From NCBI GenBank assembly GCA_051047955.1, contig JBPGPT010000002.1:1054001-1118000 (forward strand): 64,000 bases of DNA, written 5' to 3'. Positions 1 through 4,809 of this stretch are shown piece after piece (within the stretch, counting starts at the first letter, position 1; the number at the start of each line of letters is the position of its first letter). A program made the position numbers and the translations under genes. This stretch comes from Cystobasidiomycetes sp. EMM_F5 (Eukaryota). Below the pieces are notes generated by a model, which was not told the DNA's origin, searched no databases, and saw nothing but the letters and a program-made list of their open reading frames with translations.

Positions 1-1471
1 CATGCCCATTCTTCGACTACTCTGTCACACGCCAGAACATTCACGCAGTCACTGCGCGGCCCCTCTCCGTCTGATGCGATGGCCAAACGCGGTACCCAAC
101 TTGACGCCATGTCCCCGACTAGTATGAGAAGCCAAAGCATAGATTCGGGCCTTTCTTCCCGTCCTCCATATGCGCGACAGATAACTCAATCGAACTTGTC
201 AAACTCACGTCCGACCTCAGCTCTCGATAATTACGCAAACGTATCGGTTACGCCCATCGTGACTCTCAGTGCGGGCTCGACACCTGAATCTAACGGCTTG
301 CCCGATTTGTCGGCTAGTGAAGACATTGATACTGCTCAAAGTCAGCCGCGATCGTACGAGCTTATGCAAGAGTCGATATTATCAGAGAGCAGCACGGGCA
401 GTGGCATATTCGACAAGATTCAGCTGCTTCCCGACGAGCTTGTCTGCGTAGGACTCAGCCTCGCACACGAAAAGCATTGGCGTACAAAGATTGTGCACGC
501 GCTTTACTATCCGCACGACGTGATGCCGCGTCCGGGTGACAATCGCAGGCGAGTCCGGCGCCGTCCTCGCAGCAGCACACATACCTCTACGGAAAGCGAT
601 GATGTCACGTCTGATCAGGACTACCTTGACAATGATAATTCTGACAATGAGGCGGTGGAAGAGCCAGGCGATAGCAAAATCACAATATCAGGTCTCACCC
701 TCGATGATGGCGAGCACCCATACTCTGCAACGCCGAAACCGAAGCACCCTTCTCTCAGTAGACTTGCCTTGAAGCGGACTGCCACCACCTCATCGCAAAG
801 CTCCGCAGGATCACCGATGGTAGTGCGAAGGACCAAAGAAGCGCCTTACCCTGTGAGTGTAAACAACTGCTTTCAGCCCCAGCATCCGTCTAATGTACGC
901 ATGCTTGCGGCGCACCAGATTCCCTTCCTATCGCTTACTCTGACTGTTGAAGGCGGTTCTTTGATAGCCGACATCAGGTTGATGAGGGCGCTGTTTGATG
1001 AGCAGGAGGAGAGTATGGTGTTTGCATCAGGTCAAGGCGGGCTTGTAGAATTGTGGGCTGGAGAAGACGACAACTTCGACGACGACGATATGGCGAGTCC
1101 AACGCGGGAGCGGTATACTCGTGTGGGCGACACGCCGAAGGATGCCTCGGATGAGTGGGAGAAGGTCGATCAGGAAGAGGAGTCTCAGGACGATGCGGAG
1201 ACTGAGGGCAGAAGTCTGTACAAATGCCTACAGCTCGATCTATCGAGTTTTGGACTGGAAAAGGCGGGCTTAGCCCACCAGTTTGCTGGCTTGCTAACAA
1301 AGGAGGACATTAACTTGCTATATTCATCTACGTATAGGCGAGTATACAGATGAAGGCGAGGCTGTGTTACTCGAGTGCTAACGTTGAACGGTACACAGGA
1401 CTGCTAACATCTTGGTTGCGAAGAAGCACATTCGCAAAGCCAGACGCGCGCTCGAGGCGAATTCAAAGTAA
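1..1471 (+). CDS. CASTOR/GATS-like ACT-domain protein, 5'-partial (frame open from base 1); last intron 1338-1398 (GC-AG)
   Basis: Motifs IPFLSLTLTVEGGSLI and CLQLDLSSFGLEKAGLAHQFAGLLTKEDINLLYSSTY|RTANILV resemble the ACT_7/CASTOR C-terminus. Spliced last exon ends ...ALEANSK* at TAA 1469-1471. Confidence 0.65.
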
Positions 1472-1605
1472 TGTAGGTGGTGAATATTTAGTCAATACAG
1501 CCCGACTCTCAGTCGCAGATGTTTGTAGTAGCTTGTCGTTGTTATACATTATCAGATCTCATTCTTTCGAGTGGACATTACCATGCTGATACTTGACATG
1601 CGCCA

Positions 1606-4062
1606 ATGGCTAGCGATTACCGGATACTGGTCGTTGGGGACTGTCATGTCGGAAAATCATCTCTGATAACATCCTTTCTCCGCGAATCAGACGCTGACGG
1701 GCTCAAAGCTGGACCATCCCATACCGTGCAGCCCGTCGTCAGTGTGCCCGGACTCGGGAGAACTACGCTATACGTGGTAGACACGCAGTGTAGGTCAGGA
1801 ATGGCTGCGTTAGTCAGCCGTGCTGATATTGAGCACAATGACAGGCAGAGAGTGCTTCCAGGACGATAATGCATACGGACACTATCAACGCCAGCTCGCG
1901 AATGAGCTTGATCGGGCAGACGCTGCAGTCGTGGTCATCGCGGCGAACGACGAAGCCAGCATAGACGGTGTCCGCACGAGATGGCTGCCTTGGATCAGGT
2001 CTAGGAATCCTCAGGGAAACAAGGCCTACCTGCCGGTCATTCTCGCTGTCAATAAAGCGGACGTCATACCGTCAGATTCCCTCACATCTCTTCGAACGAG
2101 TCTGCAACAGCTGGTAGCCGAATGTAGGTCATCCCGGGCTGTCAAATTAGTGAATCCGCTGATTAGATGCCCAGCGCCAGAAATTGAAGAACGTTTGGAG
2201 TGTTCCGTAATGGTGTACAGAAATGTTCCGGAAAGTGAGCATAGAGTTCTTTACGCCTACGGGCGCAGCTGATTATCTTTTCGCACATCTTACAGTGTAG
2301 GCATGCCCTTATTGACAAGATATCGCTTGTGGAGCTAACCATTTTCTAGATTTTGGCTTGCTCAAAAGTCCGTCGTCAATCCTCTGGGTCCTCTCTATGA
2401 CACGACGAGCAAGGTAAGGTGGACTTCCTCTAAAAAGTAATAACATTGCTGAAATGGACGGCAAAGACGCTTCAACCTCTGGCGAGAGCGGCTATTGCCA
2501 GGATTCACCGGCTGTCGAGTCGCCAAAAGGACGTCATGGCTCATGCAGACCTACAAGATTTGCAGATGCGCGTGTTCAACCAAGCGATGTCACCAGACGA
2601 TGTCGCCCAGCTCCTGCCAGGCACTGTTGCCATAAATCAACAAGACTTCGCAAACCTCTTCCGAGAGCTGATACAACGCGGTCAAGCTGAGACAGTCTGG
2701 AATATCCTTCGATTCTACGGCTACGACGATGGCTTGCAGCTCGATGCTGGCTATTTGCACCCGAAGCTCGACATCAAAGCGGACGGTTCGGAAGTTATCG
2801 AACTCAGTCAAGATGGCTGGAATTTCCTGGTTGAACTGTTCCACAAGCTTGAGAAGGTAGGCAATTACATGGTCCGTCGAGGTGTTGTGCCTCTGCTCAA
2901 ACGTTAGTTTAGGGCGCAATACTCAATAAGGAGAGTCTATCCGACCTTCTCGACCCCACAGACTTGTTTTCAATCGAAAACATGACTTTGGTAGAGTGGC
3001 GCGCACAATGGGCGTACGTAGCGTTCTGTTCTCGGTCAAAGTTCAGATATGGCTGATCTATGGTATTTGCAGCGCATTGGTGTGGAAAGATCATAAAGCT
3101 GCGCTGAAAGCCCTCGCACAATTAGGATATCCGCAAGCTGGCCCTACGTCTGCGTCGTCTACCTCAAAACGGAAAGCAAGAAGTACAACTACCGCTCTGA
3201 GGATACTCAAAGCCGTTCCCGCTAGTACTCGACACAGTCAGCGAAGCGTCTTTGGTGTTTTGGTCATTGGCGAGATTGATGCTCAGACTGCCTTCCTTCA
3301 AACTCTTGGACGGGACGTTCTTCAATTGGAACACGAGCGATGTATCGTAGTCAGTATAGAACTGCTATGGACACCTCCGAGAGCTGACAGCTGCCAACCG
3401 TTTGCAGTTTATTTCCGTATCTGACGTGGCTCAATTGAGTACCAGGAGGATCGCCTCATCAGACTTGGCTCTCTACGTACAGATACACGATAGCAAAAGT
3501 GAGAAGGGAGACGGTGTCGGAGACGGAGACGGAGAAGAAAGGAAGCTCGATCTGTCGTACCTTGAAGACGTGCGAAGCGAGGCCAATACCAAGCTCTTGC
3601 AGCTGCCCAGCAAGCTCGTGCTCGTCCTTTCAGGATCTTCGTCCCCTCAAAGGGGAGAGGATGGGGACGCTTCTGCATCAAAACGAGTGTCGCTAGAATG
3701 CTTGGAATTTGCTCAAAAACACGGTATGTCGGGTATTGTAAGTCTCATGGAGGGCAGCGTCACGCCATTCACCGCAAACATCGAGGAGACTGTTCTGAGA
3801 AAGTAAGTCTTGTGGATCAGAACCCCGCACTTTGCCAGAAGCGGGCTGACGATCGTGTCTAAGCGCAAGGACTCGCGGCAACGAGGACCGACTGACAACA
3901 TCGACTACGAGCTGGCTTGTGTGGTCTGGCGCCATCGCTGCAGGCTGTGCTATCGGTTACGTTCTGCTGCAGAGGCTAGGATGGCTGCAGTCAAACGACT
4001 TGTCGACGACCAGCTATTCAATCTCCAGTGTCAAGTCTGGTGCGCGTCCGAAGAAGCTGTGA
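1606..4062 (+). CDS. GEM1: Divergent mitochondrial Rho GTPase (Miro/Gem1-like), multi-exon, tail-anchored
   Basis: N-terminal GTPase motifs GDCHVGKSS, NKAD and ECS. Miro-specific segments RWLPWIRS, FWLAQKSVVNPLGPLYD, TVWNILRFYGYDDGL, IELSQDGWNFLVELF and EWRAQW...LAQLGY. C-terminal TM WLVWSGAIAAGCAIGYVLL; stop TGA 4060-4062. Confidence 0.8.
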
Positions 4063-4236
4063 ATGGCATATTGAGTTGAGACCGTGGTAGCGGTGCTTGC
4101 AGATGAGGACAGTGGCGAAGAACAATACAACGACAGGAATGCTTCCGTTAACTACCACTATTGAAAGAAATGCAGGAAATGAGGGTAATGAAGTGATGCA
4201 GAAGGCAATGGTAGCATGATGTATTGCGTCGTGTCT

Positions 4237-4809
4237 TCACTTTGCGCTCATCTTGTACTGTGAAGTGTCGAGAATCTTGGTCTCACACATAACACAGATG
4301 CCCTCCTGCAAGGCCAAGAAGCTCAGCGCTCGTGTCGTATAGCAAAGGCTGGTTGGCAGAGACAGGCTCACCTTGTAGGCGCATCCTGCAGTGACGGAAG
4401 GAGACAATTGTGAGCAGTACAATCATTATATATGACGGTGCGACTGACTCTGACAATATTTTGCGCCCTCTTTGGCAACTGTCACTTTGCACACCTTGCA
4501 CTTGCCAAATGTACTCTTGCCAGCGCCTTCCGACGATGCTTTCTGGCCATCCGCTACGTCTGCACCGGCTCCTCGTTTGCTCGAGCCTACGTCTGTCGCC
4601 GTGAGGTTGCCCTTGCCTTTGCGAAGTGCGCTTCCCGCTGCGGGCACAGAAGACGTGTACCTCCTCCGTGCTTCGAGCAGTTTGTTGCTGCCCAGCTTGC
4701 GTTCGTTTCGCTGATCCGACCCAGACCCAGCAGCTTTCCAGACGTCGGTGACGGCGAGTGTCGTAGTCTTTTTGGAGCGCTCGCTGGCTTCACATTTTGC
4801 GCAGACCAT
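4237..4809 (-). CDS. CRIPT: CRIPT-family cysteine-rich PDZ-binding protein (3 exons)
   Basis: MVCAKCE...NKLL...CKVCK...YCQ|RCAYK|EGICVMCETKILDTSQYKMSAK matches the CRIPT Cys pattern; the middle exon is 14 nt. Confidence 0.85.

Follow-up and report, generated by a model that had tools for sequence, protein, structure and literature searches.

A proposed one-nucleotide exon, T2296, in a Miro-like gene of the fungus Cystobasidiomycetes sp. EMM_F5

The exon-intron structure of a Miro-like gene was analyzed in a stretch of 64,000 nucleotides (nt) from Cystobasidiomycetes sp. EMM_F5 (assembly GCA_051047955.1, contig JBPGPT010000002.1, positions 1,054,001 to 1,118,000). This whole stretch is called the window, and its first letter is position 1. 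The best model of the gene contains an exon reduced to a single base, the T at position 2296; we give this reading, which is drawn from the genomic sequence, a probability of about 0.8. T2296 would be an exon of one nucleotide, constitutively spliced, in a divergent and intron-rich fungal gene of the Miro/Gem1 type. It would be framed by two ordinary U2-type introns of 61 and 53 nt (introns A and B), which lie one base apart inside a single codon, in phase 1 and phase 2 respectively. The mRNA would run from exon 3 (to 2234) through T2296 to exon 5 (from 2350), and the resulting ATA codon would place an isoleucine at a position that is hydrophobic family-wide. One-base exons are an already published class, and T2296 is most likely an additional case of this rare known layout.

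Table 1. Coordinates of the Miro-like gene and of the elements around the split codon (window positions)
Feature	Position	Strand	Description or basis
Miro-like gene (span of the coding sequence)	1606..4062	+	Three-frame translation, donor list, scripted spliced model, Pfam
Exon 3	2175..2234	+	Encodes ...PEIEERLECSVMVYRNVPE plus A2234, first base of the split codon
Intron A	2235..2295	+	61 nt, phase 1; donor GTGAGC (score 9.4), acceptor TTACAG (score 5.3)
Putative branch site of intron A	2269..2273	+	CTGAT; branch A 23 nt from the 3' splice site; motif match only
Proposed one-base exon T	2296..2296	+	Middle base of the Ile codon A-T-A; frame enumeration, homolog alignment
Intron B	2297..2349	+	53 nt, phase 2; donor GTAGGC (score 7.7), acceptor TTCTAG (score 3.8)
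Putative branch site of intron B	2335..2339	+	CTAAC; branch A 11 nt from the 3' splice site; motif match only
Exon 5	2350..2413	+	Begins with A2350, third base of the split codon; then encodes FWLAQKSVVNPLGPLYDTTSK

Two introns around T2296 had been proposed in an original prediction made from the letters alone, and this anatomy was borne out base by base (Table 1). Exon 3 ends with CCG GAA A, and exon 5 starts with ATTTTGGCTTGCTCAAAAG, which is read as A TTT TGG. Each of the flanking introns has its own donor, its own branch motif and its own acceptor around the single base. Splice sites were scored with matrices trained on 62 intron candidates of the window, which had themselves been selected with the donor and branch regular expressions. 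The training medians are 8.6 for donors and 5.8 for acceptors: the donor of intron A lies above the first value, and the acceptors of both introns lie below the second. A T just before the donor is normal for this gene, because GTAGGT preceded by T serves as donor at 1790 and 2124. The GTAGGC of intron B had been predicted to be used as donor elsewhere in the gene, and it is indeed present at 2857.

The coding frame calls for exactly one base between the two exons. Homology fixes the frame of exon 3 and that of exon 5 separately, and the two are offset by one base. Skipping the T causes the expected frameshift: a direct join of 2234 to 2350 leads to a stop after 251 amino acids. Extending the exon to the five bases TGTAG, a solution which had also been dismissed in advance, would read ATG TAG, i.e. 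a stop. The joint was compared with 38 Miro proteins out of a set of 155 proteins, namely those which carry a motif of the type F-Y/W-x-x-Q-K at least 60 residues from their start; the alignment leaves out fragments and proteins missed by the regular expression. None of the 38 homologs has a gap within 10 columns on either side of the joint, and exactly one residue stands between the preceding E and F-Y/W. This residue is mostly hydrophobic and is distributed as follows: L in 15 proteins, V in 13, I in 3, A, C and M in 2 each, and T in 1. Since it is L, V, I or M in 33 cases, 33 of the 38 homologs need a codon with a T in the middle. The combination A+T+A, which codes for isoleucine, fits the column. 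Thirteen metagenome loci using a ciliate code were also fetched, and the five that were examined, whose long open frames appear under that code alone, are uninterrupted at the site, with one residue (I) there. The one-residue Miro alignment on which the prediction was built recurs in all 38 homologs and in all five of the ciliate-code loci examined. The predicted assembly of one isoleucine codon from three exons (A, T and A) held up in the frame enumeration, in the splice-site scores and in the gapless alignment.

Alternative splicing models of the interval were compared with these constraints. A single intron (GT/GC-AG or AT-AC) leaves 19 models without a stop or a frameshift, each of which loses or gains residues in the gapless block; the GT donors scored among them reach a maximum of 1.6, against a 5th percentile of 6.2 in the training set. 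With two GT-AG introns, 110 models are in frame and stop-free, and 2 of them keep both NVPE and FWLAQK: the one-base exon, and a 28-nt exon behind a 34-nt intron. In the region 2175-2420, the only donors within the range of the window's own candidates are those at 2235 (9.4) and 2297 (7.7). Intron lengths point in the same direction. The only length class with an excess of intron-like candidates is 50-69 nt (63 observed vs 24.6 expected), and the class of 110-119 nt holds 12 candidates for 10.8 expected, so that introns of 61 and 53 nt fit the window and one intron of 115 nt does not. Finally, one base framed on both sides by a complete intron (donor, branch and acceptor) is present once in the 64-kilobase (kb) window, both strands included, and this occurrence is at 2296. 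The number expected by chance is 0.08 per window, as estimated from 200 second-order Markov simulations; the layout at 2296 is more than chance.

Readings of the interval as a stwintron, i.e. as nested introns, were tried and rejected: no nested arrangement with 2235 as donor or 2349 as acceptor (115 nt) gives an in-frame product. The original prediction had set the site apart from the [D1,2] and [A2,3] stwintron patterns. This was confirmed, because one base must remain in the mRNA.

Several points weigh against the one-base exon. The donor of intron B has a T at position -1, where the commonest training base is G (19 of 62) and T is found in 15 of 62. Many fungi seldom use the codon ATA. Around 40% of the training candidates are expected by chance, and the low scores of non-matching donors are partly built in, because the training used the same regular expressions. 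A look-up of RNA runs for 1550-4100 found none, and run X1, searched as Logan contigs over 1400-4300, gave one contig of 184 nt (2879-3062) and none on T2296. DNA of a fungal ortholog was not found in metagenome, genome or viral contigs, the metagenome yielding the 13 non-orthologous loci mentioned above. One relative open reading frame (ORF) reaching exon 5, P0013, has MAR before FW; an arginine directly before F-W fits the read-through of a phase-2 acceptor AG/A or AG/G, and it is uninformative on intron A. The sole ORF record agreeing with 1847-2273, P0155, is the window's own protein and is not independent.

This last point would also suit an assembly indel, in which the assembly lacks an exonic base that is really present next to 2234 or 2350; the interval 2235-2349 would then be a single intron of 115 nt, and the inner AG-T-GT signals would be coincidental. 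Both exon edges are indeed short homopolymers (runs of A3 and T4). We nevertheless hold such an error to be very improbable. An intron of 115 nt has about twice the length of the class enriched in the window, and a complete inner acceptor with its branch, together with a donor with its branch, would have to arise by chance; the expectation of 0.08 given above concerns a whole window on both strands and is far less per 115 nt. Moreover, an A or a T added at the junction would give Lys or Asn, neither of which is found in any of the 38 homologs, against L, V, I or M in 33 of them.

It is also very unlikely, in our estimation, that T2296 belongs to no productive transcript. The gene might be an untranscribed or decaying paralog, a weak in-frame donor might be used, or the 115 nt might be removed as a unit, leaving a frameshifted mRNA prone to nonsense decay. 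The protein, a divergent Miro without a Pfam match to EF-hands or to the second GTPase domain, would be compatible with this, and the 19 in-frame single-intron options include for example 2215-2349 (135 nt), which drops seven residues at the joint (YRNVPE and the Ile). On the other side stand the donor scores of these options, which do not exceed 1.6, and the residues which their products lose or gain in a block that is gapless in all 38 homologs. The other ten exons are open over a model of about 649 codons with good splice sites. The family is kept in 14 or more relatives, and in many of these the ORF ends shortly beyond the equivalent of the end of exon 6. The second motif-keeping model, a micro-exon of 28 nt (2269-2296) behind an intron of 34 nt (2235-2268) and followed by intron B, has an acceptor at 2268 that scores 5.5, and it is the only other two-intron GT-AG solution that preserves NVPE and FWLAQK in frame without a stop. 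It would insert nine residues (TDYLFAHLT) and put a V at the joint, at a place where no homolog shows any gap. Its 34-nt intron would be devoid of a CTRAY branch, as CTGAT would be exonic, and the window shows no excess of candidates of 30-39 nt (5 vs 8.2 expected). We regard this model as extremely improbable.

If T2296 is an exon, we infer that introns A and B are removed by two separate standard splicing reactions under intron definition, one after the other. After the first removal, T2296 would be the last or the first base of an exon of normal size; whichever intron leaves first, the second reaction would thus be an ordinary one. The removal would probably be sequential rather than simultaneous, since the span from -3 to +6 of donor B, where U1 pairs, takes in the AG of intron A. 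The original prediction went further and proposed an ordered splicing. This finds no support in the sequence, as site scores barely shift with the intron removed first (7.72 vs 7.83 for donor B, 5.32 vs 5.22 for acceptor A), and with scores so nearly equal no obligatory order is implied. The one-base exon can also be set beside the ratchet points of recursive splicing, which are zero-length exons: there an acceptor adjoins a donor, a long interval is removed stepwise and no base is left. At T2296, in contrast, one base would be kept and coding.

Concerning the origin of the two introns, a tandem duplication giving sister introns was considered and rejected: A and B resemble each other no more than shuffled sequences do (global score -6, reached by 1363 of 2000 shuffles). 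No copies of either intron were found elsewhere in the window beyond chance matches of 9-12 nt, and within 64 kb there is no sign of introner-like spread or of a recent tandem duplication. A more elaborate scenario can be imagined, in which the one-base exon is an old conserved trait of lineage-specific degenerate Miro paralogs, without working EF-hands and with a pseudo-GTPase second domain, and in which it acts as a splicing switch. Because including a one-nucleotide exon either keeps the frame or loses it entirely, removal of the interval as two introns would compete with its removal as a single intron of 115 nt. This competition would set the protein level through nonsense-mediated decay, and the productive form would need a fixed order, A before B. 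We consider this scenario unlikely.

One-base exons have been described in several nuclear genes. The statement of the original prediction that such exons are known mainly from plants is out of date, since fungal cases exist in Fusarium CYP621A (PMC12940212) and in Coprinopsis (PMC12230235). A close counterpart is the one-base exon of the Fusarium P450 gene CYP621A (Nelson and Syed 2026, PMC12940212), documented in at least 20 orthologs and by 18 RNA-seq reads. In both cases a fungal nuclear gene has one base between two short spliceosomal introns, and this base is the middle one of a codon in a conserved motif. Both have a phase-1 exon end which is unjoinable to a phase-2 start without the base, and an apparent single intron of about twice the usual length. 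The argument is also of the same kind, uninterrupted homologs being used as a length marker (here the ciliate-code loci). The two cases differ in the base, which is a G (AG-G-GT) conserved among orthologs and confirmed by RNA in CYP621A; the base of the present Miro-like GTPase gene is a T, read from genomic sequence.

In Arabidopsis thaliana, cDNA together with reporter constructs proved the single-nucleotide exon of APC11 (Guo and Liu 2015, PMC4674806). The base could be swapped to T or G and the transcript was still spliced, so its identity is not critical. As at T2296, the APC11 exon lies between GT-AG introns and is required for the frame; that of APC11 is constitutive. In contrast with T2296, it belongs to a plant gene, its base is an A, and its introns are much longer (the base lies 333 nt into an interval of 422 nt). 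Among basidiomycetes, a long-read annotation of Coprinopsis cinerea reports 13 one-nt exons in 13 genes, from full-length transcripts (PMC12230235, 2025). These are likewise fungal nuclear one-nt exons, and they recur within one fungal genome. Fungal stwintrons (Fekete et al. 2017, PMC5587772; in Lipomyces, PMC7138796) share with our model two canonical U2 introns at one site, spliced out one after the other under intron definition. Between fungal orthologs, intron positions one nucleotide apart are known (PMC5587772), and two canonical donor elements one nucleotide apart are described in Lipomyces (PMC7138796). Stwintrons differ in being nested. Their inner intron splits a splice signal of the outer one, and the mRNA retains no base of the interval, whereas introns A and B would stand side by side with one base kept. 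Literature searches under variant wordings gave no further nuclear one-base exon, the matches being mitochondrial or unrelated, and a limited search on one-base-exon wordings found no description of such an exon in a Miro gene.

Should RNA confirm T2296, the documented nuclear one-base exons would grow by one, and a Miro-type GTPase would be represented among them for the first time. A T exon with a base other than G at donor position -1 would also indicate that the spliceosome of a filamentous fungus can define a pair of abutting introns with no exon-side consensus at all. On the practical side, automatic annotation will break up this Miro-like gene or put it into a wrong frame, as happened with Fusarium CYP621A (PMC12940212). 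The combination of an apparent intron of twice the usual length with out-of-phase exons gives a search rule for more cases. With its 115 nt, the locus is a compact natural substrate for studying how two spliceosomes share one base.

The scripted splicing of the gene gives 11 exons, T2296 included, and 10 short introns, for a protein of about 649 amino acids whose C-terminal tail is hydrophobic; in this model the last two introns have ambiguous borders (3350/3347 and 3863/3869). The window has the look of nuclear DNA from a filamentous fungus; its GC content is about 0.50-0.56. Exon 6 corresponds to the Pfam family EF_assoc_2 (PF08356; E-value 5.6e-15, 55.6 bits for a cutoff of 23.7), the region between the GTPase domains of Miro, which we take to be a hallmark of Miro/Gem1 GTPases. 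Its Atlas neighbours are EF_assoc clusters (score 0.90), which indicates the same family. Motifs of a putative N-terminal GTPase domain are readable in the translation, namely the P-loop GDCHVGKSS and NKAD. Matches to Ras, Roc and MMR_HSR1 are all below the Pfam cutoffs in a scan of the exons taken singly. No Pfam match to an EF-hand or to the second GTPase domain was obtained on exons 6-9. At the position of the second P-loop of the homologs, the window protein reads VLVIGEIDAQTAF. A hydrophobic stretch, WLVWSGAIAAGCAIGYVLL, is read near the C-terminus in the models whose last intron ends at 3863 or 3869, and it is a candidate for the transmembrane tail anchor of Miro/Gem1 proteins. As judged from its sequence, the protein looks like a divergent Miro of degenerate appearance; we call the gene Miro-like rather than a standard Miro because the two calcium-binding EF-hands and the second, C-terminal GTPase domain are unmatched.

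To characterize relatives of this protein, exon 6 was scanned with HMMER against 1.84 billion representatives. This identified 185 proteins at E-values up to 0.001, of which 24 were at 1e-10 or below and 1 at 1e-30 or below, the latter being the window's own fragment. The closest relatives, of which 14 were aligned, have 35-56% identity and are ORF fragments called in prokaryote style on Logan, ENA or IMG contigs. Many of these ORFs end just past the equivalent of the end of exon 6, typically with a Val (GTN) and a few residues, a pattern that is consistent with an intron shared among relatives at this place. The family looks real and conserved from these fragments. Since at least 14 distinct relatives with 35-56% identity exist and the other ten exons are open, a dead gene or decayed pseudogene is argued against. 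The relatives may form a lineage-specific family of Miro paralogs, found so far only in unannotated assemblies. At least 14 relatives in this range of identity were observed to share degenerate features, for example P0003, which has GVLVFGEKICRTAF. Word-indexed protein searches gave no match of exon 6 to longer proteins, and the ORF reading through from exon 2 into intron A retrieved only the window's own protein.

The 13 metagenome loci (L001-L013) are Miro-like, with 25-34% identity, and are broken by stops under translation table 11. Table 6, in which TAA and TAG code for Gln, opens all seven loci tested: L001 over 287 amino acids, L013 over 434, and L003, L004, L006, L008 and L009 over 682-764. 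These loci are most likely ciliate genes from lake and estuary metagenomes.

Other observations on the Miro-like gene concern its splice sites. Donors of the form GTAGG[TC] are present at 4 of its 10 introns (1790, 2124, 2297 and 2857, forward strand), three of them with a T at -1; this set is an unusual local preference with respect to GTAAGT or GTGAGT. The last intron (3803-3869, forward strand) has two in-frame acceptors 6 nt apart, at 3863 (score 1.9) and 3869 (score 0.9), both weak. Their products differ by two residues, and the pair may be an alternative similar to NAGNAG sites. The contig of run X1 at 2879-3062 (depth of about 3) differs from the window by A>G at 3016, inside intron 7, owing either to a difference between strains or to an error at low depth.

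Intron 2 (2124-2174, forward strand, 51 nt) is in frame and stop-free, and for this reason the 144-amino-acid "protein" P0155 is a fusion, made by a prokaryote-style ORF caller, that runs from exon 2 through intron 2 and exon 3 into intron A, of which it takes in the first 36 nt. Entries of this kind are artefacts, yet they preserve the DNA letters at splice sites. Finally, P0002, a protein of 1977 amino acids with tandem repeats of about 190 residues, matched exon 6 in 10 stretches (E-value 2.6e-24, 36% identity over about 50 residues); this likeness is probably unrelated to Miro.

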